Source: a virus (taxonomy: Duplodnaviria; Caudoviricetes). Taken from it: a DNA stretch of 64,000 nucleotides. The stretch covers positions 1,510 to 65,509 of the IMG/VR virus record IMGVR_UViG_3300030108_002876. One strand, written 5' to 3'. Position 1 is the first letter of the stretch, and each line of letters opens with the position of its first letter. The position numbers and the translations under genes were made by a program. Under the pieces are notes generated by a model. The model did no database searches. It saw nothing but the letters and a program-made list of their open reading frames with translations, and was not told where the DNA came from. Below, one piece after another: positions 7,418-59,076 of this stretch.

Positions 7418-7428
7418 GATTTATTATT

Positions 7429-12271: not shown

Positions 12272-12273
12272 GA

Positions 12274-12561: not shown

Positions 12562-13605
12562 TTAAAAGATTACATAGTTTGCTCCACACTTAAAGTTGTA
12601 CCACTCTCTGTTCCAGTACTTATAGTATCTACCTTCAAGAAATACACCTATGTGTTTATTAAATCTGTGTCCGTATATTAAACCAGCTGAGTAGTCAAGC
12701 CACTGACCACCTACTGTATTGTGATACATATATTCACCTCCAGTGTCGTAATGGTAGGGTAAAACATTTCCCCATGTGTGGAACCAGAAGTCGTCTGTAA
12801 AGTGATAGAAGTCGAAGCCGGCAACCACCGAGTAATTCCATTGACGAGAGAGTTCACTTCTTTTTCTAGTAGTATATTCAGATAAGATGTTAGGGATAGT
12901 GACTGCTTCCCAGACTTCAGTGTTTGTTGCAACGACTGTTCCGTCAGGAGCGAGGTACTCGCCTGTAACAAGGTTGTGTGAATATCCTTCTTCAATTGCG
13001 AGGTAAGTATAGTGTATGTCTCCTGTTGCCAACTTCCACTCTTCAAGTGGATCATACCCGTAAGGTTCTGAGATACGTTGTGCGATACCTGCGTGCAAAG
13101 AAAACTTGTTACCGAGCTTAAGTCTAAATCGTTGTGATCCCTCAAAGTACTCAATGTCTGCAAACCCGTCTTCAAGGTATTCAACCTTTGCCATAACTTT
13201 GTCTCCGATGTAACGAAAAAAGTGGTGCTGATTAAAGAACTCTTTACCTTGTTGTCTTTCGTATGTAACCTCTCCAAGAAACTCTATGCCGTTACGCTTA
13301 CCTATATTAGCGTCAGCAGACCAAGATGTTTCTGATCCGTCATAAAAAGCATTAGCTCTGTTTTCATAACCAAACCTAGCGATCTTACGCACACCCATAG
13401 ATAAACTATAGTCAAATGGTGTTGCTATAGTCTCTTGAGTTAACCCGTCAGTAACAGAGTATATAGTTTGATCTGACACAGAGTTACCTCCGTTAACAGC
13501 TGCATAGAACGTAGAAAACTTAAATGCTTTCTTTAACTCTTGAGCATGTAGTACCGTACAGCTAAATAGTAAGGTTAGTAATAAACTTAATCGTGGTAGT
13601 AACAT
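12562..13605 (-). CDS. putative outer-membrane beta-barrel protein
   Basis: Signal peptide ending VLHA-Q; aromatic-rich alternating strands; C-terminal GANYVIF ending in Phe. Confidence 0.6.
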   Translation of the reverse strand: MLLPRLSLLLTLLFSCTVLHAQELKKAFKFSTFYAAVNGGNSVSDQTIYSVTDGLTQETIATPFDYSLSMGVRKIARFGYENRANAFYDGSETSWSADANIGKRNGIEFLGEVTYERQQGKEFFNQHHFFRYIGDKVMAKVEYLEDGFADIEYFEGSQRFRLKLGNKFSLHAGIAQRISEPYGYDPLEEWKLATGDIHYTYLAIEEGYSHNLVTGEYLAPDGTVVATNTEVWEAVTIPNILSEYTTRKRSELSRQWNYSVVAGFDFYHFTDDFWFHTWGNVLPYHYDTGGEYMYHNTVGGQWLDYSAGLIYGHRFNKHIGVFLEGRYYKYWNREWYNFKCGANYVIF

Positions 13606-16600
13606 TTTCCTGATTTGTTTTTAGTTTTCATTTTACAACGCTTGCCGTTTGATTTTATATGTGAGCACTGAACTTCGTTAGCTTGTTGAGGAACCTCTTG
13701 GTGTATTGTGCAGTAGGTTTCGCCTGGCAATACTTTATTGCTACATCTTTTACCACTACGCGTAACAGCAGCACATTGTATTTCTTCTTCAGCTACATTA
13801 TTATCTCTTTGCTCTTGCTGTTCATCGATATGACCTTGAATTACAGCTTCGTTAGCAGCTTGTTTTTCAGCTTCTCTTTCTTGTTTCTTTTGTTCTCTTC
13901 TTTCTTCTGCTTCTTCAGCTTTGATTTCTTTTAGCTCTCGCTTAGCACCTAGCACGTCTTGATTTTGTATACCAAAACTCCAACGGCTCCAACCTAAAAA
14001 CATAGCTACACGTTTGTAAGTTTCGTTTTCAGAGTCTAACGCTGCTCTAATATTTTGTACCTTGTTATATAACCTACTTAACGGAACATTAGTTACAGCT
14101 TCAGTTGCAGCAAAGCTAGCATCATATATAGGATTATCTAGATCTGTTTTAGGCATATAATCAATTACATCTTGATTATACTCCCAAGTTCGCATACCAC
14201 TAACTAGCTTTCTAGCTTTAATACCTACAGGTGGAGATAAGTTTAAAGCTTCAATAAGCACGTCTGTTTCGTTATACTCTGTCATGTAAACATCGTCATC
14301 TTCTTTAGCTTTTTGCTCAAGATGTTCTATAATAACGTTCTTAACAGTAGCTACAACTGCACCTCCAATACCAGCTCCACGTAGTAAGCTGTCTACCATA
14401 CCGTTAACTACTCTTTCTTTTTTAACGTCAAGATCATCTTCTTCTTCGTCGTCGCCAAACATAACGCTAAATAATGCGCTTTGTAAACCGTAGAATATAG
14501 CACTTTGCACTGCGCCATAGTAAATTATTTTAGAAATATTAGCTCTGTTATCTCCCCTACCGTTTATTAAATCTTGGGCAGCACGCTTTATAATTCTATT
14601 ATACTGCATTGGCGTATTCTGAAAAGCTAGTATCCACTTACCTAATGGCGAAGCTTGTTGCTGAGATATTTTATCAGGTCTAGTAGACTGTTGAGTTTCT
14701 TCAGCTACTTCTCTCATATCTTGAAAAGCTTTTGTCTCGGCTTCTTGTTGACTCATACCTTGCTCTAAATAAGTATTAAGTCTATTTCTATACATAGTAG
14801 CACCACCTGTAGCAATAGCTAAACTATCCGCTGCTTGTGTAGGTGTAAAACCTAATTGAAGCAAGTAGCTAATAGCTGTTTTCATAGGGTTTTTAGAACC
14901 TTGAAGTTCTTTTAAAAGCTCAGCTGCGTTTAAGTCAGTACCAATACCTGCTCTTCTTTGTTTTAAGAAATCAGAGTTAAATATCATAGATACATCAGTC
15001 CAATATTGTTTTTGATTAGCAAAAGCTTTACCAGCTGCTAGTAAGTTGTTGTCACTCCAGTTTATAAAATTAACGTTAGATATCATTTGTAGCATAGCAG
15101 ATCTAGCGTTAAAGAACATTGTAGTACCAATAGATCCATTAAGCCACTGTGTAAAGCCGTTTACTAATCTATTAGAACCAAAGTTTCTAGTACTACCAGT
15201 TTTCATACGGTATATACTATCTTCTAAAGCTTCTCTGTAGTTGCTACCAAATACAGCTTCTAGCTTATTTAAATTCTGCTCGCTAAATATAACGTCAACA
15301 TTGTTGTTCCACTCTTGTAGTAAGGTTTCTCTTGAAGCGTCTATAGTTTCCATGATATCCATAGATATAGTACCTCCTAACCAGTTATCACCTGGCTCTA
15401 CAGTAGCTTCTGCTTTATCTAATATTTGTTCAAGACCGTTAGCAAAACTTGTAAGTTGCGGATCTGCCTTAACTGCTTTAGTTAATTTATTTAAATCTGC
15501 TTGTGATAAACCAGGTACTTCAACTCCGTTTCTATTCCAATTAAAAACTCTTATAGCTTGCTCATACGTAAACTCTGTACCTGGTACTTTACGTTTTAGC
15601 TTTGACTTAACGTCTTTATGCGTACGTTTTAAAGCTCTTAAGTCACCGCTAGTCTCTTGCTGCAAAGCATTTAAACGTCTCATGCCGTTAGAATACGGAT
15701 CAAATAAGTTTTCTTTAAACCATTGGTGATGCTGTTCTCCAATTTGTCCTTTACCTAGCATAGGATACATAAGTCCTTTAAAGTCTTCTGCTGAAGGTGG
15801 TAAGAAAAATTTAAACTTACCTTTATTTTTACCACGTTGTTTAGCTTTAGCTGGTGAAAACTTTTTCTTACGATCTACATCTTTTGTTTCTTCTAATATA
15901 ATATTTAAATCTGCATTTAAATCAGCTTCGCCTTGACCTATTATTTCGCTTACACGAGCAGGAGCAGATCTACTAAATAAAGTTTTAGCTTGTTCAACTT
16001 TACCTTTAATATCAAACTCATCAAAAACTTTTCTAACAGCTTCAACGTTTTGCAAAGCGTCGTCTGCAAACGCAATATCATTATAGCCTTGAGCGTGCTT
16101 ATCTAGCAACCATCTAGCTTTAGCTTCACCTGTAGAATTACCTAGACCGGTAATATTTTCAATAGGTATATTTAAACCTAGTGAATCTAAAAACTCTTTA
16201 ATAGCTGGTGCAGATTCAGGCGCTCTTGCTGTAAGTATAAATGTATCTTGAGTACCATACTTCTTTGCACGCCTCATAGCTTTATCAAAGAAAGGTCCTG
16301 GAGTACCGCCAGTAACTTTATTAAACTCAGAAAAATCTGGCACCCAACCTTCAGCTACAAGATCAGCACCCTGAGTAGCAAAATCTTCAGCGCTTACTAT
16401 TTTAGTTTCACCGTCTTTATTAAATATAACGTTTGATTTAGTTCTAGCTAGAGTGTCATCAAAGTCCCAAGCTGTCATACCTTTTTTCTTACCAGTCCTT
16501 GAGTATAAGCTTTTTTCTTTATTAGCTTTTTTAGCGTTACTTCTTGTCTGCTCTATAGTGCCTACGTCGTTACCACCTAATGGTCCTAAAGCATCTTTAC

Positions 16601-19600
16601 GTTCTTTATTTACTCTGTTCCAATTATCTATAGTAATACCAGCATCACCGCCAATACTAACGCCTGTAGACAACATGCTAAGTTCAAGATCAAACCCAGC
16701 TGCTAGTAGCTGTGGACCATAGTATCTACCAAGTGGCGACATGTCTGATGTTTGCCAATAAGGAACAGTTGACTTGTAAAAAAGATTTACAATATCATCG
16801 TACTTTTTAGGCAAATAAGCTAACCTATAGTTGTCCATAGTTTGGTCAAACTGTGTTTTCTGATCAGCATTACCAGTCGCTATATACCTTAACGCTTGTA
16901 AATTTACTTGCAGCGCTGGAGTCATATGCTCTAATGTAGCGCCAAGCATTATTGGGTTTCCTTTTGAGTCAAGCTTTGGAGTACCATCTCTATTTAAAGC
17001 AGGTTCTAACTTGAAAGGTTTAGTAGGTGCGAAATCAAATATAGCAGAAGATCTAGTTAAACCTTGTTGACTAGAATTTAACGTTTCTAGTATTTGAGTA
17101 GCTTGAGCAAGACTAATTTCCTTGCTGTCAACCATTGATCTAAGCTCTTCAACTATTTGCCTAAACGCTTTATTGTTTTCTTGTTGAGCTTTTACTATAG
17201 CATCTTTATTGTTTACGTGTTTTTTTACTTGATCGTAACTAAAGTTACCGTCCATGTAATTAGAAGGCGGTCTAGAATAATCTCCTATTTCACCTTTTAC
17301 AGCGCCAAGTAATTTTCTAGTGTCTTCTCTACCGTCTGTAAAAAAGCCTCTTTTACGAGATGATGCTGCTGCTAAACCTGGCACTAAAAATCTTTCATTA
17401 AATTCAGCGCCGTATTTTTCTGCTAGTTTTTGACCTAATTTACTAGCACCTGCTCTAGCTTTTTCAACGTCTAAAGGATTAGAAAGATCTAATACATTAT
17501 TCTCACCAACAACTGTTGTATAATACTGTCTGTGAGTAGTAATTTCATTAACTATATGACCTTGTATTATTTGACTTAAAGGCTGTTTTAATATTCCAAC
17601 ATTAACGCTTACATCTTTAACAGGTTTAAAACCACTAAACTCATCATACACTTGTTGTAGCTCACTACCTATTTTAGCAAATCTTCTAGTTATTAAAGAA
17701 ACCTCTTTCTTGCCAGCTCTACCAAACTGTTCTATAGCAAGAGCTCTAATATCTTCATCAGTAAACAAGTTATTAAAAGCTCCTTGTATATTACCAGTAA
17801 CATCTTCAATCATTTGAAGACCTTCTTCACTTTGTATTTTATTTAACACAGCTTGACCAATAGTAGAGTATTCACTTTGCAACTTATTAGCAGTTTTAGA
17901 ATACAAAGTCTTCGACTTACCGTCTTCAAAAGTAAAACCTTGACCTTTGCCTTGTTCTATTAAAGCTTCTTTAGCAGCTTGATTAGTCATAGCTTTACCT
18001 GTCTGATCAATTAAAGCTTTAATTCTAGCACTAGTATTACGATCACTTACATTAGGTTGACCAGCTGGCGTTACACCAAAAGTTTCTAAAAACTCTTGCT
18101 TTGTTATATTATCACGTTTTAATTGAGCTGCTAAACCTGCTTTACTACCTGTTTTAGATGCAGATACTCTACCACCTTTTTCATAAAACGGCTCCAATAA
18201 TACTTTATTAACACCTGTAGATTTACCTGAAGTATCGGTACCTTCTGGTAACATAGCAATCAATGTGTCAGCATGCTTCATAATAAAAGCTTGTGCGTTT
18301 TTAACGTCACCTTTAGTTAAATTACCAGGCTTTGGAACAACGCCAAACATAGTTTGAACCTGATCAGACACAGCATTACCTAGTGTTTTATAAGTTTTAT
18401 TATCTGTATTGATAGCACCACGTTTTACCTGTTGTTTAGTGTCGTCATGTATCTTCTGGCCTCTTTCACCGAACCTATCAGCTAGTCTTATGCCTTCACG
18501 AGTTCTACTTACAACTTCTGGTTCTGCGGCCGCTTCAGCAGCTACGCCTCTAGCTTCGGTTACGTCATCTTCAAACTCTGTCTTTAATATTCTATTAGCA
18601 GCTTCAATAGCTCTTCTGTCTAAGAACTTATTAATATAAGCAGCAATAGGTACTCCAGGGTTTGCGTCTTGATCATACTCTAATATCATATCAAGTATAC
18701 CTCTACGCCCAGTATTTATTTCGTCAGTAAGTAACTGTCTGTCAAAGCCTGGTACGTCTTGATATTTATTAACAAGCTTGTTTACTCTACCACCAAACTC
18801 ATCTATAATATCCATTGCAGCGCCAACGCCTTGATCTTCGTATAGAGTTTGTACACGTTCAGATGCCTCTTGTCCAGACCTTGAAAATCTCTTTTTACTA
18901 GTCTCTCCATCAAGCGTGCCTTCAATTCTACTTTTTGTAAGCTTTGAAACTTCACCGTTTCTAAACGCTTCAATATTACTTACCATAAAATTAAGCGCGT
19001 CTTTACTGTTGTTTATCGTAAAGCCTTTACCTGTAGCCATTCTGTACCAGTTGCGTAAACTAGTTCTACCAGCGGCTTTTTTAGCAGCGTTAAACTCACT
19101 CTTGAAGTACTTATTACCAAGTATATCTTGAACAGACTTTGTATATTCGTCGTAATACTCTTGACTACCTTGTTCAAGATTTAACGCATTAACCCTGTCT
19201 CTAGCAGTTTGATCTACCCATCTAAGATTTTTATCGCCATTTAAACCTGTCATTAGTTTTCTAGCAAAGTTTTCCATCTGACCCTCAGCGTTCATACCGC
19301 TTAATACGTCTATAGCGTGAGTACTTTCGTGAAGAACTACTGTGCCTTGGAGTATTTCTCCTTTATCTAAAGCGTCTTGGACTTGCTGTGTGTTAGCTAT
19401 GGTTATATACTTACCACCAGGAAGTAAGGCACCAAACTCAACGCCATCTTCAGTTGAAGACTTAAACATATCTTGCGTGTCGTCTCTAAGCGCGTCGTAC
19501 TCGTCTTGAGTAATATTGCCATTGTCAAACTCTTGCTTAATTTTTGCCATTAAGTCTTCGTTAGAGTCTGCTTGTATCACCTCAAAGTTACCAGCAACGC

Positions 19601-22600
19601 TTGGATCTGCTAGTATAGCTTCGAGTGAAACGTTACCTTCACGTGCTTGCATGGTAGTCCACCCTTTGCGAACTTGAAGTTCAGTACCATACCTATCTAA
19701 TATAGCATCTTCTGCTTTACGGTTTCTGTTTTTTCTACCGCTTTCGCTAAACTTACCTCCATAAACCTGTAGCTCTACAAACTCCATCAACTTCTCGTCT
19801 TTACGATGTGAGTTTACTCTATTGTTTCTAGCTTTACGCTGCATTTCAGTGTGAACAGCAACCGCTTTTTCTCTGTTAGACAACTGATCCCAACCAGATT
19901 TTTTAGATAGCTTGTCTTGTACTTTTAAACCTTCTTCGCCATATACATCTTCTACCACGTTACCGTCTTCGTAAGCTTGAGCAACTTCGGCATGCGTTTT
20001 ACTAATTCTATTATTAGCGCTAGATAACCTTTGATCAAAAGATTTTAAATCACCACCGCTCAGTGTAGCTCTATATTTTTTTAGTTTTTTATCTATTGTA
20101 GCTTGCGAATCAGATCCTGTAATACCAGCTTCTTGGTGTATTTTTAATAAAGCTTTATTAGCTTCTAGTGTAGTTTTTAAGGTCTTTGAACCACCAACTA
20201 AAACATCAAGCTCTAAACCGGCTTGCAAATTAGACAGTCTACCTACCTCTTGAAGATAATCTATTTTAAGAGCTTCTCTCTCAGCTGGTGTTGCGGCTCT
20301 TTCCATACTAGCTGTGATCATGTCTAGATTCGTCATTACATCATTGTAAACCGCTCTAGTGTCACTAGTCGCCATTGTAGAAGTAAACGCGTTATATACG
20401 TTACCAGCACCTTGAGTTGGGCCAGCTGATATAATAGAAGAGAAAACTACATCAAGAGCGCCAGAGTAATCTGCGTCTTGGCCTAGTATTAAACTACCAG
20501 CCATTTGATCTCCAAAGAATATTAAGCCTTCTTCAAGAACTTCACTACCAGTTTCTTTAGCAGTAGCAAGAACACCTCTGCCTACGTTTTGATACCACGT
20601 ATTAGTTGCAGTTCTAAGGACATCATCAACCTCACCTCCAAAAGCTTTTAATAATTTTTGAGAGTTTATAGCCGTACCAAAAAACGTAGTTACACCACCT
20701 TCAATAACAAGAGCTGAAGCCATAGCTGTATACAGTTCTGTATCATCTATATCTCCAAGAGCAATGGTTTTTTCTAACTCTCCTTTTTGCACTAAGTACT
20801 CGGCCATTGATATGTCGCCGCGCTCACGTTGAGCTTCTAAAGCGGTAAGCTGCTTTTGAGCTTCTTCTCCAGCAGAACGCATATCATATATCTGCTTTTT
20901 CTTTTGGCCTGCAGATCCAGTTCCAAAAATACCAAAACCAGTGGTCGCTGAGCTTCCGTATTTTATAACGTTAGCTGACGCTCCAAGCGCTTTCAAACCA
21001 CTAGATGTTACACCACCTGTACCGACAGCTACAAGTAGGTTTGGTAATTGTTGAGTAAACGTTCTAGACGCATACTCACCTTTCTGACCAATATCCCAAG
21101 CTTCACTAGCAGTAAGCATAGTTCTGTAAGCACCTGCTCTGTCATCTATTCTTTGCAAGCCCGCTATACCTTCTTCGCTACCAAAAAAAGCCGTAGTACC
21201 CCACCACATGCCCTTCCAAGCGTCCATCCAGTCTTTCCACCTTTTATCATGATCATCAAATTCTTTTGAAACAGTATTAAGCACAGCTGCATTGTCTTGA
21301 GTTTCGTTAACAAACTCTAGATATTTAAGCATCTCACCTCTAAGGCCATTCATATAGTCTGAATTTATAGTCTCGTATTGACGATATAGGTTGTCAACTT
21401 TCTTCTGAAATACTTTGCGATCTTCTTCACTGCCATCTTCTGGCATATCTATTACAAATCTGAACGTACCTTCTTCAACATTACCCTCAGAGTGATAGCC
21501 ATATCCTGCTTTAGCAACATCAGCTAAAGTGCCATTAATAGTTGTAGCTAAACTATCGCTCTTCTGCTTTAAATGGTTTTCAATAGTAGACTGTCTAGCG
21601 CTAAAAGCGTTGATCTTAGCTTGTATGTTGTGAGGTGCTGTTTTTTCGTCTATAACACCTCTTACTATATTAGCGTTTGAAGAATTTGATATCTCTCTTT
21701 CAATCAATATGCTTCTACGTCGATCAACTTGTTCATCTACAACAGATCCTACTATAATGTTTACCATATCAGAACCTGCTGTCAATGAATTTCTAACTGC
21801 TTCTTGACCTTCAAGTGATAAGTTCTTGTACATGTCAGACTCAAGCACACCGTCAAGTCTTTGCTTTTGCCAATCTGAAGCCAGTGTTTTTTCAGTATAT
21901 GTTTTTTTATAGCCCTTTACCCATTTCTCTTTCTTTGTTGTGTAGTATATAGGTTCGTTAAAATATTTTGCTATTGTAGTTATTTCTTCTTCTGGCAAGT
22001 TTGAGTCTTCTAGTACAGTTCTAATCACATCAAACGTTAGAACGTTATTGTCTTTAAGAGCTAAACTAATAGCCGTTGCACTGTACTCTGTTTCATCTAT
22101 GTCAAATGTTGATGGATCATCACGAGTAACAATATATTTATCTTCAAAAGCGGAAAGCTCAGCGTTAATACCATTAAGTACTTCGGCTTCTCTTTCAACC
22201 ATGTACTCTCTTGACTTTTGCAAAAAGTTTACGGTAGGATTGCCTTTATCATCATAGCCAAATCCGTTTTCTTCATGAAAATCTTTTGCCAAGTTCCAAA
22301 AATAGTTTTGTACTTCACCACTACTTACGCCAGCGTAATTATTGTTCATCGTACCACCAATTTCATTGGCTTCATTTTCACCTAAAGGGTTAGAATTATA
22401 GTCTTCAAAATCTTCAGGCGCTCCTCCTAAAACAACTTCGCCGTCTTTTAATACTCTATACCCTCTTATAATTACTCCTCTTCTTCCTTTTTGTTGGTTA
22501 TATCTACTACCAGAATATTGATCAAGCATATATTCACCTTGCAAATTTTTTCTCATTACTTGCACAGGATAAATTGGTTCAATAGTATATCCAGAAGCAC

Positions 22601-23621
22601 TAAGCGCTTCGTTCATACCTTCAATATCATTAAATTGATAGGCGTATTCTTCACCCGCTTGCGCTTTAGACGTGCCAAATGGATTTTCAGAAGCCCCAAA
22701 TGCTGGGTCTGCGTTACCACTATCTTTTCTTTCAAACAAAGACCATATAGGATTAGATGCTATTTTACTGTTATCACCAGTATTATACCATTCTGCAATA
22801 TTATCTACAGCTGTATCTACATGTGTTTCATCTTCATCTGATATTACTGAATACCCACCGTTTGGCTTAAATACAACAGCATGTTCGTTGCCAAATCTAT
22901 TAACATTAGTGTGACTTGCTTGCAAGTTGGGAAAAGCTGCAGTACCTTTAAAATCTCCAGCTATAGTAGAAGAAGAGTAGTTAAACTCACCTTGATACTC
23001 TCGTTTAATATTAGTTTTAAGGTCTTTAGTAAATTTATCTTCAATACCTTCAAACATACCTGGCTGATCCGCTTCATCGCCTTCAGTATAATCAGCGTCA
23101 ACTTTATCTACAAACTCGTTATACTCAGGAAACATTTCTTTAGCTATCGTGTTAGCTACGTCTCCTGAAGTCTGTGTCCAACTTGGCGCACCTACTTTTT
23201 TAGTGTAGTATATACCGTTTTCTCTTTTGTATTCATATCCATCTCCTCTATCTGAAATAATTTTAGGTGCATCTTGCGGCTCTTCAGTTACAACTTCTTC
23301 TTCTTGCCTTTGTTCTTCAATTATAACTTCTTCTTCACTACTAATATCTGTATCTACTTGATCATCATCTTCTTGCTCCAACAAAGATTCGTCTGTACTC
23401 ACTTCCGTAGTAGACTGTAAAGCGTCTGATTGCCCTTGAGTCGTTGACTCTCCGCTTGGGCTTGGCTGAGAGTCTTGATCTTTTTTTACCTGCTCGTCAT
23501 CTTTGTACTGCTTTACAAAAGCCATTATGTCAGTCTTAGCTTGTTCGCTTAACACACCGTTATTAGCAGCTTTCGCGGCATCAATCTTTTCTTGAACAAG
23601 AAGTTCTAGTTCTGGATTCAT
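13587..23621 (-). CDS. giant multidomain internal virion/ejection protein (3344 aa)
   Basis: Located after the tail genes; contains HExxH, a sigma-region-2-like segment, HAD motifs and two C-terminal C-C-C-H fingers. Confidence 0.75.
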   Translation of the reverse strand: MNPELELLVQEKIDAAKAANNGVLSEQAKTDIMAFVKQYKDDEQVKKDQDSQPSPSGESTTQGQSDALQSTTEVSTDESLLEQEDDDQVDTDISSEEEVIIEEQRQEEEVVTEEPQDAPKIISDRGDGYEYKRENGIYYTKKVGAPSWTQTSGDVANTIAKEMFPEYNEFVDKVDADYTEGDEADQPGMFEGIEDKFTKDLKTNIKREYQGEFNYSSSTIAGDFKGTAAFPNLQASHTNVNRFGNEHAVVFKPNGGYSVISDEDETHVDTAVDNIAEWYNTGDNSKIASNPIWSLFERKDSGNADPAFGASENPFGTSKAQAGEEYAYQFNDIEGMNEALSASGYTIEPIYPVQVMRKNLQGEYMLDQYSGSRYNQQKGRRGVIIRGYRVLKDGEVVLGGAPEDFEDYNSNPLGENEANEIGGTMNNNYAGVSSGEVQNYFWNLAKDFHEENGFGYDDKGNPTVNFLQKSREYMVEREAEVLNGINAELSAFEDKYIVTRDDPSTFDIDETEYSATAISLALKDNNVLTFDVIRTVLEDSNLPEEEITTIAKYFNEPIYYTTKKEKWVKGYKKTYTEKTLASDWQKQRLDGVLESDMYKNLSLEGQEAVRNSLTAGSDMVNIIVGSVVDEQVDRRRSILIEREISNSSNANIVRGVIDEKTAPHNIQAKINAFSARQSTIENHLKQKSDSLATTINGTLADVAKAGYGYHSEGNVEEGTFRFVIDMPEDGSEEDRKVFQKKVDNLYRQYETINSDYMNGLRGEMLKYLEFVNETQDNAAVLNTVSKEFDDHDKRWKDWMDAWKGMWWGTTAFFGSEEGIAGLQRIDDRAGAYRTMLTASEAWDIGQKGEYASRTFTQQLPNLLVAVGTGGVTSSGLKALGASANVIKYGSSATTGFGIFGTGSAGQKKKQIYDMRSAGEEAQKQLTALEAQRERGDISMAEYLVQKGELEKTIALGDIDDTELYTAMASALVIEGGVTTFFGTAINSQKLLKAFGGEVDDVLRTATNTWYQNVGRGVLATAKETGSEVLEEGLIFFGDQMAGSLILGQDADYSGALDVVFSSIISAGPTQGAGNVYNAFTSTMATSDTRAVYNDVMTNLDMITASMERAATPAEREALKIDYLQEVGRLSNLQAGLELDVLVGGSKTLKTTLEANKALLKIHQEAGITGSDSQATIDKKLKKYRATLSGGDLKSFDQRLSSANNRISKTHAEVAQAYEDGNVVEDVYGEEGLKVQDKLSKKSGWDQLSNREKAVAVHTEMQRKARNNRVNSHRKDEKLMEFVELQVYGGKFSESGRKNRNRKAEDAILDRYGTELQVRKGWTTMQAREGNVSLEAILADPSVAGNFEVIQADSNEDLMAKIKQEFDNGNITQDEYDALRDDTQDMFKSSTEDGVEFGALLPGGKYITIANTQQVQDALDKGEILQGTVVLHESTHAIDVLSGMNAEGQMENFARKLMTGLNGDKNLRWVDQTARDRVNALNLEQGSQEYYDEYTKSVQDILGNKYFKSEFNAAKKAAGRTSLRNWYRMATGKGFTINNSKDALNFMVSNIEAFRNGEVSKLTKSRIEGTLDGETSKKRFSRSGQEASERVQTLYEDQGVGAAMDIIDEFGGRVNKLVNKYQDVPGFDRQLLTDEINTGRRGILDMILEYDQDANPGVPIAAYINKFLDRRAIEAANRILKTEFEDDVTEARGVAAEAAAEPEVVSRTREGIRLADRFGERGQKIHDDTKQQVKRGAINTDNKTYKTLGNAVSDQVQTMFGVVPKPGNLTKGDVKNAQAFIMKHADTLIAMLPEGTDTSGKSTGVNKVLLEPFYEKGGRVSASKTGSKAGLAAQLKRDNITKQEFLETFGVTPAGQPNVSDRNTSARIKALIDQTGKAMTNQAAKEALIEQGKGQGFTFEDGKSKTLYSKTANKLQSEYSTIGQAVLNKIQSEEGLQMIEDVTGNIQGAFNNLFTDEDIRALAIEQFGRAGKKEVSLITRRFAKIGSELQQVYDEFSGFKPVKDVSVNVGILKQPLSQIIQGHIVNEITTHRQYYTTVVGENNVLDLSNPLDVEKARAGASKLGQKLAEKYGAEFNERFLVPGLAAASSRKRGFFTDGREDTRKLLGAVKGEIGDYSRPPSNYMDGNFSYDQVKKHVNNKDAIVKAQQENNKAFRQIVEELRSMVDSKEISLAQATQILETLNSSQQGLTRSSAIFDFAPTKPFKLEPALNRDGTPKLDSKGNPIMLGATLEHMTPALQVNLQALRYIATGNADQKTQFDQTMDNYRLAYLPKKYDDIVNLFYKSTVPYWQTSDMSPLGRYYGPQLLAAGFDLELSMLSTGVSIGGDAGITIDNWNRVNKERKDALGPLGGNDVGTIEQTRSNAKKANKEKSLYSRTGKKKGMTAWDFDDTLARTKSNVIFNKDGETKIVSAEDFATQGADLVAEGWVPDFSEFNKVTGGTPGPFFDKAMRRAKKYGTQDTFILTARAPESAPAIKEFLDSLGLNIPIENITGLGNSTGEAKARWLLDKHAQGYNDIAFADDALQNVEAVRKVFDEFDIKGKVEQAKTLFSRSAPARVSEIIGQGEADLNADLNIILEETKDVDRKKKFSPAKAKQRGKNKGKFKFFLPPSAEDFKGLMYPMLGKGQIGEQHHQWFKENLFDPYSNGMRRLNALQQETSGDLRALKRTHKDVKSKLKRKVPGTEFTYEQAIRVFNWNRNGVEVPGLSQADLNKLTKAVKADPQLTSFANGLEQILDKAEATVEPGDNWLGGTISMDIMETIDASRETLLQEWNNNVDVIFSEQNLNKLEAVFGSNYREALEDSIYRMKTGSTRNFGSNRLVNGFTQWLNGSIGTTMFFNARSAMLQMISNVNFINWSDNNLLAAGKAFANQKQYWTDVSMIFNSDFLKQRRAGIGTDLNAAELLKELQGSKNPMKTAISYLLQLGFTPTQAADSLAIATGGATMYRNRLNTYLEQGMSQQEAETKAFQDMREVAEETQQSTRPDKISQQQASPLGKWILAFQNTPMQYNRIIKRAAQDLINGRGDNRANISKIIYYGAVQSAIFYGLQSALFSVMFGDDEEEDDLDVKKERVVNGMVDSLLRGAGIGGAVVATVKNVIIEHLEQKAKEDDDVYMTEYNETDVLIEALNLSPPVGIKARKLVSGMRTWEYNQDVIDYMPKTDLDNPIYDASFAATEAVTNVPLSRLYNKVQNIRAALDSENETYKRVAMFLGWSRWSFGIQNQDVLGAKRELKEIKAEEAEERREQKKQEREAEKQAANEAVIQGHIDEQQEQRDNNVAEEEIQCAAVTRSGKRCSNKVLPGETYCTIHQEVPQQANEVQCSHIKSNGKRCKMKTKNKSGKCYYHD

Positions 23622-48095: not shown

Positions 48096-48096
48096 G

Positions 48097-52368: not shown

Positions 52369-52369
52369 G

Positions 52370-52639: not shown

Positions 52640-52650
52640 ATTTCTTGTTT

Positions 52651-53950: not shown

Positions 53951-54002
53951 TGCCAGGAAAAGTCGCGACTCTAAGCCAGCCCCGCCTCTTATTTTTACAC
54001 TT

Positions 54003-54034
54003 TACAAACTAAATACGACTTCACTTGGATAATA
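54003..54034 (+). promoter_or_regulatory. early promoter-like repeat, copy 1
   Basis: TACAAACTAAATACGA-N8-GGATAATA. Confidence 0.75.
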
Positions 54035-54064
54035 TATATGTAAACAAAATCTAATAACTACAAA

Positions 54065-54268
54065 ATGAAAAAGTTAAACTACAAATTAAAAACTCTTATA
54101 ATTACTAAAATAGCTAAAAACTTCAGAAAAAAGTTACCAATCGCTCGCAATCTCAAAGTTCAAAATATTGATTACATGTATGAATATAGCTTTATTCAAC
54201 TATTCAAAACATTAATCGACTCATTCAAACTTGAACCTCAACACTTCAATAACATGTTTATCAAATGA
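54065..54268 (+). CDS. early hypothetical protein
   Basis: 67-aa ORF after repeat copy 1. Confidence 0.55.
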   Translation: MKKLNYKLKTLIITKIAKNFRKKLPIARNLKVQNIDYMYEYSFIQLFKTLIDSFKLEPQHFNNMFIK

Positions 54269-54403
54269 GACAAATACTTGAATCAATAGCAATAATTATA
54301 CTTATACTACTAAGTTGTTGTGTGTACTAAAAAAATTGTACAATCACACTCGCGGCAGAAGACTACTCTAGTAAAATTGTATACTAAACAAAACATACTC
54401 TTT

Positions 54404-54435
54404 TACAAACTAACAACGACACTCGTTGGATAATA
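54404..54435 (+). promoter_or_regulatory. early promoter-like repeat, copy 2
   Basis: TACAAACTAACAACGA-N8-GGATAATA. Confidence 0.75.
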
Positions 54436-54472
54436 ATAATAACTAATTTAAAAATTCTAAAATTTACATATC

Positions 54473-54718
54473 ATGTCAAATTCTAATAACACTCTAATCT
54501 CAAAGCGTTTCGTACTACGTCAGTCACTTGTTGGCAAAAATGCTATCATCACTGTCAACTTCAAAAATGGCAAAACAGTTACTTACTCACACGACAAAGC
54601 ATTCACTCTTATGCAGTCTGCACTCGAAGCAATGCCATGTTGGGCAAAGTACAAGTCGTACACTGCTACTAACAATGTGCCAAAGGCAATTCGTGAAACT
54701 GAAGCAATTGTTGACTAA
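54473..54718 (+). CDS. early hypothetical protein
   Basis: 81-aa ORF after repeat copy 2. Confidence 0.65.
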   Translation: MSNSNNTLISKRFVLRQSLVGKNAIITVNFKNGKTVTYSHDKAFTLMQSALEAMPCWAKYKSYTATNNVPKAIRETEAIVD

Positions 54719-54837
54719 TGATTAGTGCCAGCAAACTCCGCAAGTTGTCAGGCTTGTACCGCTTCCGCAGAGTATAAACAAATAATAGTCCAGTTAGTTG
54801 TATGTTTACTGGTAAATCAAATATGAACATACACACA

Positions 54838-54911
54838 TAGTAGTCCTTGGCGGAATTGGCGGCGATTTTACCGTAGCATTGCAATTACGAGTTCGATTCT
54901 CGTGCTACTAC
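54838..54911 (+). ncRNA. tRNA-like element 1 (degenerate tRNA or mimic)
   Basis: Acceptor TAGTAGT/GCTACTA, perfect T-arm ACGAG-TTCGATT-CTCGT, D-loop-like TGGCGGAATTGG; no canonical anticodon arm. Confidence 0.55.
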
Positions 54912-54934
54912 TAACAATTAAATAAATAGAAAAC

Positions 54935-55033
54935 ATGAAAACATTTTTCAAAAATCACTATGTACTTATCGTACTTGGCTTCTGGCTAACAACTTTAATG
55001 TGTCTATCTTCTTGCTTAGGCGTTACAAACTAA
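54935..55033 (+). CDS. 32-aa signal-peptide-like ORF with lipobox LSSC
   Basis: Translated by hand: MKTFFKNHYVLIVLGFWLTTLMCLSSCLGVTN. Confidence 0.4.
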   Translation: MKTFFKNHYVLIVLGFWLTTLMCLSSCLGVTN

Positions 55034-55055
55034 GCACGAACGCTAAAGGATAATA
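55024..55055 (+). promoter_or_regulatory. early promoter-like repeat, copy 3
   Basis: TACAAACTAAGCACGA-N8-GGATAATA. Confidence 0.75.
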
Positions 55056-55060
55056 ATAAT

Positions 55061-55366
55061 ATGATATTCGATACTAAACTACGAGCTGAAGTAAAAATAC
55101 AGCGTGATGCAGTGCATCAATTACTCAAGCACCACTTACCAAAGTGTGAGCTAACGCTAATCGGTGACAGCGAGATACAACTCACATGGCACTCAAATCC
55201 TCACTGTATACGTGAAACATTACTTACATGTAGCATGTATGGCGACTGGCAGTTCGAAGAGCACCAGTGGGAGTCGTTCGATAACTATCATTACTCAACA
55301 GACTTAAACGTCGACTACACGTCACCTGCTAACGAAGTTGTTAACGCATTAATGAAATTACTATGA
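55061..55366 (+). CDS. early hypothetical protein
   Basis: 101-aa ORF starting 6 nt after repeat copy 3. Confidence 0.65.
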   Translation: MIFDTKLRAEVKIQRDAVHQLLKHHLPKCELTLIGDSEIQLTWHSNPHCIRETLLTCSMYGDWQFEEHQWESFDNYHYSTDLNVDYTSPANEVVNALMKLL

Positions 55367-55464
55367 GATTACTATCAATCATCGCGCTCTGCTTAGTATT
55401 TAATGCAGAGATAAATCAAGGCTGGCAAGGCTGGGTAAACTCTACTTGGGACGTAGTAGGTGTT

Positions 55465-55496
55465 CACAAACCAAATACGAAACTAAATGGATAATA
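55465..55496 (+). promoter_or_regulatory. early promoter-like repeat, copy 4
   Basis: CACAAACCAAATACGA-N8-GGATAATA. Confidence 0.7.
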
Positions 55497-55501
55497 TTAA
55501 T

Positions 55502-55693
55502 ATGAAGACAATACAATTCCTCAAAGACAAAAGAGTACAGCTCAATGGCGTAACTTTCAAGCCATACTGTATCGGCGACTTACCGCCATCATTCGGTTGC
55601 ATTGCTCACGAGCGTGACGCAGACGGCGACATTGTTAAATACGGCATAAGTGAATGGTTTGCATTCAAAGGCTTTTGCTACATACCAGAGTAA
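55502..55693 (+). CDS. early hypothetical protein
   Basis: Start revised to MKTIQF, downstream of the repeat. Confidence 0.6.
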   Translation: MKTIQFLKDKRVQLNGVTFKPYCIGDLPPSFGCIAHERDADGDIVKYGISEWFAFKGFCYIPE

Positions 55694-55695
55694 TC

Positions 55696-55848
55696 ATGAA
55701 AATTACAGTATTAAATTTTGAAGTGTGCGAAGTAGATACAATAGAGCTACCAGCAGAGTTACATGGCGCACAAATCGAAGTGCTAGAAGGTTTTTTAATC
55801 GGCAAAGACTACAGTCTTGGCAATATAGAGTGGATGCAACATGAATAA
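55696..55848 (+). CDS. early hypothetical protein
   Basis: Likely start MKITVLNF. Confidence 0.55.
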   Translation: MKITVLNFEVCEVDTIELPAELHGAQIEVLEGFLIGKDYSLGNIEWMQHE

Positions 55849-56344
55849 TCAAGCAAAAAAATATAGAAAATACTACGAAGCACTCGACGCAATCGGTTGC
55901 AAGCATATATCAACGCCACGTCAAATCAAGAATGGAACACGAGTATTTCGTCTACCATTCAAAGACGCTTGGGGTCACGATATAGACTTTGCTACATACG
56001 AGTCGGGTTATGTACGCAGATTAGTAAAGGTCGGCTATTGTCCTTGCTATCAAATTAATAAAAAGTGTAAGAAATCACGTATGGTTAAAGTAGAAAGCGG
56101 TACACACAAAGGCTATTACTACAAGAGACGCTCAAACGAACGCATACTAATTGAAGGTAATGGCGATCGACTAGAGTACTTATTTAACTACATTATACGT
56201 AATTTCTTTAGAGCTAAGCCAAAATACAATAGAACTATCGACATGGAGTGGTTAAACTTCTGTGCAAAGTGGCAATACGGTGAGTTTGGCTTCAACAGCT
56301 GCACTCAACCACAACAGAATAACATACTAAAATCTTTACAATAA
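55841..56344 (+). CDS. early hypothetical protein
   Basis: 167-aa basic ORF. Confidence 0.65.
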   Translation: MNNQAKKYRKYYEALDAIGCKHISTPRQIKNGTRVFRLPFKDAWGHDIDFATYESGYVRRLVKVGYCPCYQINKKCKKSRMVKVESGTHKGYYYKRRSNERILIEGNGDRLEYLFNYIIRNFFRAKPKYNRTIDMEWLNFCAKWQYGEFGFNSCTQPQQNNILKSLQ

Positions 56345-56679
56345 TGACAAGTTACGAACAAAGAGCGTATGACGCGCTCGCAGTGAAGCTAACCGAAGCA
56401 GGTTACGCATATGAAAACACAAGCTGGGCTAATGATGCAACTGCATCTATATCAGTATCTTGTAGACGTGTAATTATATCAGAGGTTGAAGATGAAGTTC
56501 AACAATTTGAGTTTCAAATTTACATACCTAACTGTGATTACCTCGACCCAGATAACGAGTTCTTTAATACTTATGCTATCACTGACGTGATGACTGGTCA
56601 CACATATGACTTCGATCGAGCTGATGAAGTTGTAGAGCATATTCAAGACTGCTTACGAGATGTTATTTTTACAAACTAA
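56344..56679 (+). CDS. early acidic hypothetical protein
   Basis: 111-aa ORF with SWAND segment. Confidence 0.65.
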   Translation: MTSYEQRAYDALAVKLTEAGYAYENTSWANDATASISVSCRRVIISEVEDEVQQFEFQIYIPNCDYLDPDNEFFNTYAITDVMTGHTYDFDRADEVVEHIQDCLRDVIFTN

Positions 56680-56701
56680 ATACGATTACCTCTGGATAAT
56701 A
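56670..56701 (+). promoter_or_regulatory. early promoter-like repeat, copy 5
   Basis: TACAAACTAAATACGA-N8-GGATAATA. Confidence 0.75.
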
Positions 56702-56706
56702 ATAAT

Positions 56707-56919
56707 ATGAAATGTCCAAAATGCAATAACACAATACAACCTGGCCGCGTGCGCCTTGGTTACAAAGTATGTATCAACTGTTCTACTGTAGAGCGTTATG
56801 GTTGTGCACCACTTATAAACCACAAGACAGGCAACTCAATACAAATTATGTCAAGCAGCGATGCTGCTCGTATTGCCAAACTTACAAGGCGTCGCGGTTA
56901 TGGTACAATGCTAAAATAA
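56707..56919 (+). CDS. C4 zinc-finger protein (DksA/TraR finger-like)
   Basis: CPKC-x4-I-x3-R...CINC pattern. Confidence 0.6.
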   Translation: MKCPKCNNTIQPGRVRLGYKVCINCSTVERYGCAPLINHKTGNSIQIMSSSDAARIAKLTRRRGYGTMLK

Positions 56920-56926
56920 TATAATC

Positions 56927-57283
56927 ATGGATAAAGAAAATTTACAAACAAAGTTAGAAGCGCTAGAAGCTAACGTAAAAGTTAAGCAAAATGAACTAGG
57001 CATTGCTATGTCAGAAGCTCAAATGGCGCGAGAAGAACTAGCTAATGCAGACAAACCTGTGCTATCAGCAGATAAAGCGTCAGATTTAGTAGATCTGTTA
57101 CAAGGTATGTTTCACGATATACTAAATGACGCTGACACTAGCGACCTAAGTCCAGAGTTCAGTATAGACTATGGTAACGAGGTAAGACTCGACTGCATTG
57201 ACATGAGTGCGATCGAAGTACACTCAGGTGATATCGAAGCTGTACTAGAGCAGGTATTCAATATAGTGTCTGACAATAGCTAG
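56927..57283 (+). CDS. early acidic coiled-coil protein
   Basis: 118-aa ORF. Confidence 0.65.
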   Translation: MDKENLQTKLEALEANVKVKQNELGIAMSEAQMAREELANADKPVLSADKASDLVDLLQGMFHDILNDADTSDLSPEFSIDYGNEVRLDCIDMSAIEVHSGDIEAVLEQVFNIVSDNS

Positions 57284-57447
57284 TTAAGCACGACGGTGCA
57301 AGGCGTACAAGCACATGTAAACACAAAGAGCTGTTTACCTAACGTGTAAAATTTACGATAGTGTACGTAACGGGCGAAAGCCACGCATTGGCCGCAGGTG
57401 ACCTAGACGATAGGTGTCAAAGCTTCGGCGCCGGGTCAATGCTTTAC
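57284..57447 (+). ncRNA. putative structured ncRNA
   Basis: ORF-poor and GC-richer; GGC-GAAA-GCC and GC-TTCG-GC tetraloops; helices GCATTGGCC/GGTCAATGC, GCGTACA/TGTACGT, GTAAACA/TGTTTAC. Confidence 0.5.
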
Positions 57448-57448
57448 A

Positions 57449-57547
57449 TAAGAGTAACGGTTGTTATGCTTGCCTATCACAGGTAGCTTGGTGCACCAAG
57501 TGACGAGAAACAGCAAGTTAACGCAGGTTCGATTCCTGCACTCTTAC
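57449..57547 (+). ncRNA. tRNA-like element 2
   Basis: Perfect 7-bp acceptor TAAGAGT/ACTCTTA and T-arm GCAGG-TTCGATT-CCTGC; 67-nt non-canonical middle. Confidence 0.6.
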
Positions 57548-57576
57548 AAACTAAATACGAATACTAATGGATAATA
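57545..57576 (+). promoter_or_regulatory. early promoter-like repeat, copy 6
   Basis: TACAAACTAAATACGA-N8-GGATAATA. Confidence 0.75.
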
Positions 57577-57581
57577 TAAAC

Positions 57582-57770
57582 ATGAAAGACTATATTACAC
57601 AAGAGCTAGCTGCGCTCGATCGAAGCATTGTAGCTACACCACACACCAAAGCAGATCTAGAATCATTTGCTAAAGCAAATCAAGGTAGTAGCGATATACT
57701 ACTTATGCAAATGGCAATGCAATACGGTTATAAACTAGCATTAGAAAACCTAGAAATAGAATTATCATGA
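57582..57770 (+). CDS. early hypothetical protein
   Basis: Start revised to MKDYIT. Confidence 0.6.
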   Translation: MKDYITQELAALDRSIVATPHTKADLESFAKANQGSSDILLMQMAMQYGYKLALENLEIELS

Positions 57771-58003
57771 GACAAACATTGTATGAAAGAATAACACCAG
57801 AGTGCAAAGAAGCTCTAGAATATAACTCTAAGCGCTGGCATGGCGCAACTAACAAAATAGTTAGCGTGCTATCGTCACATAAATTCTGGTCTGATTTAAG
57901 AGTAGGCGACGTAAACTTTATTATACAGTTCGTAGACCTACCATTTGCAAAAATAACTGCCAATACATTTGCGTTCGGCGAAAATATTATCAAAGATGAA
58001 TAA
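57767..58003 (+). CDS. early hypothetical protein
   Basis: 78-aa ATGA-coupled ORF. Confidence 0.6.
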   Translation: MRQTLYERITPECKEALEYNSKRWHGATNKIVSVLSSHKFWSDLRVGDVNFIIQFVDLPFAKITANTFAFGENIIKDE

Positions 58004-58262
58004 GAAAAAAGTACAAGAACAATTACCTAACTGGTTTCACGGTGAGGTGTATGAATTAGGCGACGAAGTTCGTAATCCATTTAGCGGCGAAACAGTATTG
58101 CTAGATGCTGCTGAGCTAAGTATGTATGACTGCGTCAAAGGTGCTGAAATGATTATGCACATGGGCGCAGCTAACATTGATGAGTGTATAGATGTTATTA
58201 ACCAAGGTAAAGACTGGTTTCTTGCTAGAAACCCTCAAGCCTACATGACACTACTTGATTGA
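57969..58262 (+). CDS. early hypothetical protein
   Basis: ORF (true start probably MNKKK) ending NPQAYMTLLD. Confidence 0.6.
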   Translation: MRSAKILSKMNKKKVQEQLPNWFHGEVYELGDEVRNPFSGETVLLDAAELSMYDCVKGAEMIMHMGAANIDECIDVINQGKDWFLARNPQAYMTLLD

Positions 58263-58338
58263 TGATTATACTTAGTATGCTAGTGTCATATATATTTTTA
58301 GAAATATTTATAGAATCAAAACAAAAATTTAAAGAATA

Positions 58339-58752
58339 ATGGCAACAAGAGCAACGATAAGGTTTGCTACACGCGAAGAAGGTGTACCTTTTGACAAACA
58401 CCCACAACAATGGCATGCGCAATTCTACAACCACTATGACGGTTATCCTGAAGGTTTAGGTGTAGAGATCGCGAAGTCATTTACTAACTACAATAAAATC
58501 AACGGCTGGGAAGTTGAAGCACTTGATATAGTTCACGGTGATATAGAATATCTGTATTACGTATGGCAGTGTCATGGTAAATCAGAGCCATGGATTAGTA
58601 TATTTCAAGTAATTGATTGGAGCGTTCCTGAAAATAATAGCGAAGGCAAATGCATCTTCGTAGGTACACCAGATATGTTATTGAAGAAGTATGCGCCTGA
58701 AGAAAGCGATCTTGATAAAATTTCTAAGCATCTTTGCGATAATACAAACTAA
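58339..58752 (+). CDS. early hypothetical protein
   Basis: MATRATI...YNHYDGYPEGLG, a recurrent motif in phage hypothetical proteins. Confidence 0.7.
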   Translation: MATRATIRFATREEGVPFDKHPQQWHAQFYNHYDGYPEGLGVEIAKSFTNYNKINGWEVEALDIVHGDIEYLYYVWQCHGKSEPWISIFQVIDWSVPENNSEGKCIFVGTPDMLLKKYAPEESDLDKISKHLCDNTN

Positions 58753-58774
58753 ATACGAACGATGACGGATAATA
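58743..58774 (+). promoter_or_regulatory. early promoter-like repeat, copy 7
   Basis: TACAAACTAAATACGA-N8-GGATAATA. Confidence 0.75.
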
Positions 58775-58788
58775 ATCTAAACAAATCA

Positions 58789-59076
58789 ATGACTGAAAAA
58801 GAATTAAACAGCTTAGCTAACAAGATCGTAGCTAAAATGATGCATCTTAAAACCATGGAACAGTGGTTTGAGCACATACGTGATACTGATGTAGCTAAAG
58901 ATGCAGACTTCTTCAGTCTACACATAAGCGAAGAGTATGAAGCTATGGGTGATCTAGCTAAGCTTATTACATTGCTTAACTTGTACACTGAAGATGAAGA
59001 ATATGAAAAGTGCGTTATCATAAAACGCCGTATAGAAACTGTAAATAAAATACTAGATAAATATGATGAGACATAA
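58789..59076 (+). CDS. hypothetical protein with UVR-like C-terminal helical hairpin
   Basis: EDEEYEKCVIIKRRI resembles the UvrB/C ClpC-interaction motif; start revised. Confidence 0.55.
   Translation: MTEKELNSLANKIVAKMMHLKTMEQWFEHIRDTDVAKDADFFSLHISEEYEAMGDLAKLITLLNLYTEDEEYEKCVIIKRRIETVNKILDKYDET

Follow-up and report, generated by a model that had tools for sequence, protein, structure and literature searches.

The virus record IMGVR_UViG_3300030108_002876 is 65,509 bp long, and the 64,000 nt analyzed here (hereafter the window) make up nearly the whole of it. Its minus strand carries a giant open reading frame (ORF), P0001, of 3344 amino acids (aa). An earlier note had picked out by eye a segment of the encoded protein that resembles region 2 of sigma-70 factors, and had suggested that the protein, once ejected, acts as a sigma-like factor and redirects host RNA polymerase to early repeats of the phage. 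The quoted peptide exists letter for letter: it matches residues 1612–1674 of the ORF exactly, at window positions 18600–18788 on the minus strand and within the range given for it (18590–18800), and the plus-strand frame over the same positions is riddled with stops. We describe here the helical domain that contains this segment, its predicted likeness to domain 2 of sigma factors, the repeats, and the role that the domain might play.

The minus-strand gene order is large terminase, portal, major capsid, three small structural proteins, a 2631-aa protein of the crAss-like muzzle type, three small ORFs and the 3344-aa ORF (Table 1). The giant ORF lies four genes downstream of the muzzle-like gene, within the structural module, and sits in the cargo-gene slot of a crAss-like virion module. 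In crAss-like phages, too, the cargo genes (gp65, gp66 and gp67 in phi14:2; gp45–gp50 in crAss001) are of giant size and follow the muzzle gene downstream. In the phi14:2 record, annotation from tandem mass spectrometry proteomics gives g067 as a virion structural protein, g066 as the catalytic RNA polymerase subunit and g065 as an RNA-polymerase-associated protein. A preprint describes a zincin-like protease domain in gp65 and the occurrence of fused polyproteins (bioRxiv 10.1101/2020.03.07.982082), and the cargo proteins of crAss001 are reported to be stored in the capsid, ejected before the DNA and refolded (PMC10172136). For the giant protein studied here, we infer packaging, ejection and self-cleavage at an HExxH site from gene position only. 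The HExxH motif is retained in the family consensus; its surroundings aligned weakly with the HExxH region of phi14:2 gp65 (E = 1.1), and no Pfam peptidase family matched the giant protein.

Unlike crAss-like cargo, the giant protein has no DFDxD motif, and its best BLASTP E-values were 1.1 against gp65 and 2.5 against gp66. The DxDxD motif is absent from both giant ORFs, and among ORFs of at least 80 aa the pattern D[FYWLIVM]DxD was found nowhere save for an unrelated DVDLD in a 298-aa ORF. No DFDxD-like motif was found in G006, a complete relative of 63,908 bp with terminal repeats (L022). A search of the genome for T7-like RNA_pol gave no match, though it matched no control genome either. 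Sequence searches of the PDB, including the solved N4 and phi14:2 polymerases, returned no match for the giant protein or the family profile, and the giant protein had no PHROG match. The earlier note had offered the sigma-like factor as an alternative to the virion RNA polymerase of crAss-like phages. In agreement with this, a muzzle-like gene is present, and apart from the unrelated DVDLD no motif of the DFDxD type was found in the window or in G006.

The giant protein also invites comparison with two other kinds of very large phage protein. N4-type virion RNA polymerases (Schitoviridae gp50) are about 3300–3500 aa long and are delivered from the virion for early transcription (PMC13434306). 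P0001 is of similar size and would also be delivered from the virion; unlike them, it shows no similarity to solved N4 chains or to any PHROG, and the host enzyme would do the catalysis. Polyvalent proteins join unrelated domains in one very large chain, as the giant ORF and its family appear to do with HExxH, a HAD-like block and, in some homologs, kinases. Injection along with the DNA and processing by a metallopeptidase domain have been proposed for polyvalent proteins, and the word 'sigma' is absent from the main text of the survey describing them (Iyer et al., 2017, PMC5512222). The giant ORF combines HExxH, the sigma-like domain and a DxDxT block, and no Pfam LPD family matched it.

Table 1. 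Positions of the features discussed, in window coordinates. pLDDT, predicted local distance difference test.
Feature	Position	Strand	Basis or remark
Giant ORF P0001, 3344 aa; presumed virion cargo or 'polyvalent' protein	13587..23621	−	ORF list and translation
Conserved C-terminal block, residues ~2600–3200	14022..15824	−	In 94–97% of 115 homologs, 34–63% column identity
HAD-like block with DxDxT, WDFDDTLA at residue 2386	15972..16484	−	Motif scan; family consensus LDFDDTLA
Second conserved domain D2, residues ~1713–1889, helices and a beta hairpin	17955..18485	−	pLDDT about 85–95
Acidic linker, predicted disordered, residues ~1687–1708	18498..18563	−	pLDDT <50 at residues 113–134 of the 341-aa model
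Predicted sigma-2-like helical domain, residues ~1581–1679	18585..18881	−	AlphaFold2 model, Foldseek, ESM Atlas, predicted docking, 18 invariant columns
HExxH motif HESTH, residues 1431–1435; possible zincin-like metallopeptidase site	19317..19331	−	Motif scan
crAss-like muzzle-type protein, 2631 aa	26335..34230	−	Pfam crAss_MUZ_C, E = 6.4e-6, at the cut-off score of 27.0 bits; PHROG match to phrog_14478 ('virion structural protein'), E = 3.8e-107
Seven copies of the bipartite motif TTACAAACTAAATACGA-N8-GGATAATA	54002..58790	+	Repeat and motif scans

Predicted fold and docking of the embedded domain

Modeled alone with AlphaFold2 from 51 sequences, the 116-aa domain reached a pLDDT of 88.8 and a predicted TM-score (pTM) of 0.82, with helices at residues 7–34, 36–44, 54–63, 68–74 and 85–105. 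When this model was compared with 350,542 PDB chains using Foldseek, 38 of the 49 rows among the matches listed were sigma chains, with TM-scores of 0.5–0.59; as these all belong to one family, they count as one observation. Among them are a fragment of RpoS spanning regions 1.2 and 2 (5h6x_A; TMq 0.50, TMt 0.59, root-mean-square deviation 3.8 Å over 91 columns, probability 0.77), 7f0r_F (TMq 0.57), 6omf_F (TMq 0.52), 5ipl_F (TMq 0.50), region 2 of sigma-E (5or5; TMt 0.57, 24% identity) and the extracytoplasmic function (ECF) sigma SigK (4nqw_A). Convention and chain length are our grounds for taking chains F, P and L of polymerase complexes as sigma. In these model-based comparisons no other fold family rivals sigma-2, and the sigma hypothesis had been fixed before the fold search. 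Sigma-2 is thus the top PDB fold family for the segment, but the query is a predicted model and every E-value lies above 1 (best E = 1.6, with no match at E ≤ 0.001).

The 341-aa core (residues 1575–1915, 55 sequences) was modeled as two domains joined by the disordered acidic linker, with a mean pLDDT of 78.3. For this two-domain model, 21 of the 45 PDB rows among the matches listed were sigma chains, all with E > 1 and with TM-scores of about 0.19, because the domains are oriented differently. In the viral library BFVD, its only significant match was a family member (E = 3.7e-8), and six named phage sigma factors appeared among the 50 rows listed, with E-values of 0.35–1.0. An ESM Atlas feature search returned as its top match (0.96) a viral cluster of 118-aa proteins, 14% of whose members carry PF04542, and 11 of the 30 matches fall in the PF04542-bearing set; the top cluster may be the giant protein's own family. 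We judge from these models that the domain very probably has a sigma-2-like fold, resembling regions 1.2 to 2.4 of sigma-70 factors.

A complex was predicted for the 116-aa domain, with its alignment, and residues 200–360 of Flavobacterium johnsoniae RpoC (RPOC_FLAJ1). The ipSAE score was 0.70 (0.70, 0.65 and 0.71 in the individual runs), compared with 0.04 for the best of three controls; the mark applied to this score is passed by 58 of 80 solved complexes and by 2 of 110 mismatched pairs. Individual runs share at least 53% of their contacts, and the partner pLDDT is at least 78, with a pLDDT of only 52 for the beta-prime fragment itself. Confident contacts on beta-prime fall at residues 288–319 and follow the i/i+3/i+4 pattern of a helical hairpin, while those on the domain side (residues 25–29, 51–73 and 103–104) cover the helix aligned with region 2.2. 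For a pair that resembles solved complexes, a pass is a sign of likeness rather than of binding. In this prediction the score and the region-2.2-like helix are as expected for contact with the beta-prime clamp helices, but it is only by position, in E. coli numbering, that we take the hairpin to be the clamp helices. Docking of the domain on host RNA polymerase is, on these models, plausible, with chances that we would call even.

The homolog family and a bipartite promoter-like motif

A search with residues 1400–1900 found at least 822 proteins of 1839–5852 aa at E ≤ 0.001 among 8000 scored candidates. Nearly all of these homologs are unnamed metagenomic sequences, and some have kinase-type P-loop domains. 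We mapped 115 homologs onto the giant protein with BLAST, leaving out five close relatives. Conserved blocks were seen at residues ~1551–1900 and ~2351–3200, and the first ~1500 residues are not shared; the full coverage of the first block arises because the set was picked using that block, and the conservation of D2 in 115 of 115 homologs is to be read in the same way. In alignments of 51–73 sequences the best conserved part is the segment quoted in the earlier note. Eighteen columns are invariant in 51 sequences, including, in the numbering of the 116-aa domain, L56, E60, G64, R66, Y75, P84, A86, N90, L93, R96, I98, E99, A100, L105, F109 and D112. Conservation is low at residues 1701–1750. 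D2 gave no Pfam lead, and its best ESM Atlas score was 0.84, with no family; the conserved C-terminal block matched nothing in Pfam, PHROG or the PDB.

Searched by tblastn with residues 1408–1874 and 2350–3344, 50,697 GenBank phage records contained no match, and a scan of 185,579 species genomes returned two contigs only, from metagenome-assembled genomes (MAGs) binned as Parvibaculum and Arcobacter. We rejected these as a clue to the host, as they are probably phage contigs binned by error. Between the upstream conserved region and D2, family members have a slot that holds at least four unalignable sequence types (L270, L273, L276, L272, L268, L271, L274), for instance ...NFDPESNDSLFGWVNSQISNKAGNVYN... 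in G009 and ...NVAAYINQFLPQRAKE... in G016. Judged from these sequences, the variable slot suggests a cassette-like diversification of the domain.

The early repeats invoked in the earlier note are real, and take the form of a strictly conserved and widespread bipartite motif. In the seven copies of the window, ACGA starts at 54015, 54416, 55036, 55477, 56682, 57557 and 58755, and in four of them the A of ACGA is followed, precisely 25 nt on, by the ATG of a 62–101-aa ORF. At least 119 IMG/VR stretches contain ACAAACTAAAYACGA-N8-GGATAAT in its exact form. The element can also be written tTACAAACTAAATACGA-N7-TGGATAATA, and the contigs that carry it are mostly 30–72 kb long, often with several copies (loci L149–L267). 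Among 373 unique sites selected by ACGA-N8-GGAT alone, conservation of the flanking positions is 87–98%. Start codons lie 23 or 25 nt after ACGA at 176 of 370 sites (110 and 66, respectively); the purine enrichment found 25 nt after ACGA is due to these codons and is not independent evidence for a start site. The GATAAT of the downstream block can be read as a −10-like hexamer placed 5–7 nt before start codons, in which case many genes would be leaderless, and this reading is not separable from a translational or regulatory role of the motif. The −7 motif of Bacteroidota, TAnnTTTG, was not enriched (73 observed vs. 79 expected).

In G006, whose core region is about 50% identical, the motif occurs five to six times at the right end, in one case no more than 50 nt from the terminus. 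The motif is missing from the closest relative, G003, because the contig of that relative stops at about window position 54,006, before the repeats. Many contigs from seawater metagenomes share no more than the ~35 nt of the motif, their loose ends lying at 57544/57545 and 57579–57584. The stretch or parts of it were found in marine metagenomes of 13 studies. In two RNA-library runs the share was small (0.08 and 0.05) and consisted solely of contigs; because some of these include the motif itself, they are evidence neither of transcription nor of a start site. At E ≤ 1e-5 the 341-aa core is matched by 17 of 30 motif-bearing contigs, and among those at least 90% complete the proportion is 14 of 21. 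A profile search of the 13 non-matching and three partially matching contigs found 10 of these 16. Within motif-bearing genomes, D2 is by sequence the more constant part, compared with the sigma-like slot.

Possible roles of the domain

Our best overall explanation, offered tentatively and given slightly less than an even chance, is that a sigma-2-like module in the giant cargo protein captures host polymerase. The protein would be packaged and ejected with the DNA, and possibly cut by its own HExxH domain. The sigma-2-like domain is predicted to dock on the beta-prime clamp helices through its region-2.2-like helix. Docking of this kind would capture the core enzyme of the host for use at the phage's early promoter-like elements, which are strictly conserved; the phage has no recognizable polymerase of its own. 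Genuine promoter-specific initiation, that is, a virion-delivered sigma factor, is unproven, and we think it unlikely. Unlikely, too, is a wider proposal in which a marine clade of crAss-like architecture has swapped its virion RNA polymerase for the sigma-2-like domain plus D2 in an ejected giant protein, forming a phage-specific holoenzyme; and we give the same low credence to such a holoenzyme starting at TTACAAACTAAATACGA-N8-GGATAATA, before often leaderless early genes at the leading end of the genome. One may speculate on a division of labor, with polymerase bound by the slot and DNA by D2 or another factor. Of the earlier note's central idea, an ejected sigma-like factor that redirects host RNA polymerase to the repeats, the fold and the docking find support in the models, but no region 4 was found, and the motif also occurs in genomes in which the domain slot is divergent or undetectable.

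The closest comparison is with sigma-70 domain 2 (PF04542), which the phage domain resembles in predicted helix topology and size, as its best PDB structural match, and in its predicted contact with a beta-prime hairpin. The succession of domain, flexible acidic linker and second domain also recalls the sigma-70 family; in ECF sigmas the layout is sigma-2, linker and sigma-4. The differences are considerable. The phage domain is not a free factor of 20–70 kDa but lies within a 3344-aa protein, at residue ~1580; it has no detectable sequence or profile similarity to sigma factors and different invariant residues, no region 4 was found, and D2 is ~180 aa long with a beta hairpin. A highly diverged precedent is the late sigma gp55 of phage T4, which has a sigma-2-like part only, and whose kinship is mainly structural. 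This factor attaches to the beta-prime clamp helices, recognizes just one −10-like element, and depends on gp33 and the sliding clamp. It is small and made after infection, whereas the domain described here would be delivered already formed within a giant virion protein.

The by-eye likeness to sigma region 2 was reproduced in our own alignment with fetched sigma sequences: the G-x2-G, aromatic, G and Y positions have the same spacing in the segment and in an RpoD-type ORF in L013, as judged by eye. That spacing, and a likeness of predicted structure beyond chance, remain of the earlier observation, but the sequence statistics do not rise above chance. In Smith-Waterman alignments of the segment with the region-2 segments cut out of ten sigma factors, which were taken from two MAGs, z-scores over 300 shuffles ranged from −1.1 to 3.1 and exceeded 2.3 in three of ten; the sole alignment in the register of the earlier note had z = 2.4. 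One family member, P0140, has a weak, in-register match to Sigma70_r2 at the homologous place (E = 0.21, 11.9 bits, profile positions 20–66 of 71).

The results that follow all weigh against capture of host polymerase by a sigma-like domain. Pfam Sigma70_r2 (PF04542; gathering score 24 bits) matched neither the whole protein nor the 116-aa domain nor, at E ≤ 10, pieces of 267 and 467 aa. When the complete 65.5-kb genome was searched in six frames with PF04542, nothing matched at E ≤ 1, compared with matches in 11 of 14 control genomes. P0140 was the only one of 31 family members scanned in which Sigma70_r2 was found, and none of the slot sequences from eight motif-bearing genomes matched it at E ≤ 10. 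With hhalign, the family profile and the 10-sequence sigma-2 alignment were paired at a probability of 0.2%, and a broader 146-sequence slot alignment gave 0.1%; this is a weak negative because the sigma profile is small. Against all PDB sequences the family profile returned only low-complexity noise and no sigma. As for region 4, Sigma70_r4 and Sigma70_r4_2 did not match the giant protein, and PF08281 was without a match in the whole genome at E ≤ 1 (PF04545 was not run genome-wide). Sequence-level homology to Sigma70_r2 was thus not found by Pfam, hhalign, PDB profile search or shuffled pairwise alignment. The complex prediction has its own weaknesses: the score may come from solved sigma/beta-prime complexes that the model remembers, and we count 5 of 17 contact residues in conserved columns, against an expectation of about 7, so the predicted interface is no better conserved than the rest of the domain. 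In the genomes, G009, G021 and G027 match in the flank and in D2 and have the motif, but the slot of ~100–136 residues between differs, and in G008, G011 and G023, which are complete and motif-bearing, the module was undetectable by profile search. A slot that varies while the motif stays fixed is a poor fit to the domain alone reading the motif. The host, finally, is one that we infer: it probably belongs to the Bacteroidota, because the nearest GenBank terminases are those of phages of Flavobacterium, Cellulophaga, Tenacibaculum and Maribacter (Flavobacteriia) and because a neighboring ORF has a sorting domain of the type-9 secretion system.

That every sequence and profile test was negative, and that all Foldseek E-values exceed 1, would be expected if the domain were a look-alike: a helical bundle of generic type, belonging to an ejection or scaffolding protein and serving, for example, in channel formation, in capsid packing or in binding another phage protein, which makes no contact with polymerase and resembles sigma-2 through convergence or model bias. 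The predicted interface is not enriched in conserved columns, and the invariant P84, N90, R96, E99, A100, L105, F109 and D112 differ from the residues known to be conserved in sigma factors. The cargo proteins of crAss001 are described as mostly alpha-helical (PMC10172136). We nevertheless consider a look-alike somewhat unlikely, as the sigma hypothesis preceded the fold search that then returned sigma-2 as the top PDB family, a language-model search using other information also points to Sigma70_r2-bearing clusters, and the complex prediction exceeded its controls by 0.66. A sigma mimic acting as an inhibitor would accept the predicted docking through the region-2.2-like helix and occupy the clamp helices, displacing host sigma or holding the polymerase, and would read no promoter; the motif would be left to another factor or to host sigma. 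The failure to find a region 4 and the retention of the motif in genomes with a quite different N-domain slot agree with such a role, and injected modifiers of polymerase are known (T4 Alt; PMC5512222). We think it very unlikely, however, since the most invariant part of the domain is its last helix and the following stretch rather than the predicted beta-prime face, and since a phage that has no polymerase of its own gains little from blocking the sole enzyme for its early genes.

Lastly, the giant protein could itself be an unrecognized virion RNA polymerase of a new type, with the sigma-like domain and D2 as its promoter-recognition head. The motif is as strictly conserved as the promoters of phage-specific polymerases, its upstream block contains AATACGA, which is also part of the T7 promoter, and large conserved blocks of the protein remain without an assigned function. 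Against this stand the missing DFDxD-type motif, the empty T7-like RNA_pol search (silent in control genomes too), and the absence of PDB sequence matches, including to the solved N4 and phi14:2 polymerases, and of any PHROG match. We consider this the least probable of the readings.

Phage early transcription is known to proceed in three ways, by the host holoenzyme as it is, by an injected polymerase (N4, crAss-like phages) or by an injected modifier (T4 Alt). If polymerase capture by the giant protein were true, an injected subunit mimic docking on the sigma site would be a fourth, and it would explain how early transcription starts in phages of crAss-like architecture that lack a DFDxD polymerase. 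T4 Alt, which is likewise an injected protein that reprograms host polymerase (PMC5512222), differs in acting by ADP-ribosylation and not by subunit mimicry. With at least 822 protein clusters in the family and the motif in at least 119 IMG/VR stretches, such a mechanism would operate in a common marine phage group. The models also suggest that, within giant 'hypothetical' proteins, sigma-like folds can escape detection by sequence profiles. Our literature searches, which did not extend to supplementary files, found no report of a virion or polyvalent protein with a sigma-like domain. For a direct in vitro test, both the protein fragment and the DNA element are now defined.

Other features of the protein and the genome

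The DxDxT block of HAD type is kept across the family, and a weak match to HAD_2 was found in one homolog (E = 0.28). Homologs P0027, P0034, P0078 and others add P-loop kinase domains (Zeta_toxin, AAA_33 and AAA_18). The pairing of a kinase with a HAD phosphatase recalls RNA repair by polynucleotide kinase-phosphatase. The last ~60 residues of the giant ORF (13590–13775, minus strand) contain two Cys-rich repeats of the form C-x8-RC...C-x2-H, with a weak Pfam match to zf-C3Hc3H, 'potential DNA-binding domain' (E = 0.48). A clear membrane helix in the giant protein was considered and dropped, as no 19-residue window reached 1.6 in a hydropathy scan.

By terminase, the closest GenBank relative is MW202828.1 (64% identity). 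The cargo slot of this phage is occupied by an unrelated ORF of 3859 aa (L027, 741–12320), on which the family hidden Markov model scored 2.2 bits only, with no detectable similarity. This ORF has two HExxH motifs, and its automated name, 'reticulocyte binding/rhoptry protein', is surely wrong. MW202828.1 also carries groEL and a 10-kDa co-chaperonin, and the phage studied here encodes a GroEL-type chaperonin (50239–51810, minus strand) and a ribonucleotide reductase (2802–4667, plus strand).

The sorting domain of the type-9 secretion system mentioned above forms the end of a 767-aa ORF (9238–11541, minus strand; Por_Secre_tail, E = 4.5e-11), a phage protein with a Bacteroidota secretion tag that also has four internal repeats of 78 nt at 9704–9972. 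Tandem coding repeats at 47763–48019 (minus strand), one of 39 nt present three times and one of 15 nt present several times, fall within a 150-aa ORF. Five minus-strand genes open, at 7388–7431, 12242–12295, 48066–48109, 52339–52392 and 52610–52663, with the near-identical ATGGC(G/A)TTTAAAATGAAAGG, encoding M-A/P-F-K-M-K-G. The same family is found in G003 (L024, 2097–2701 and 6665), and these genes make up a small paralogous family.

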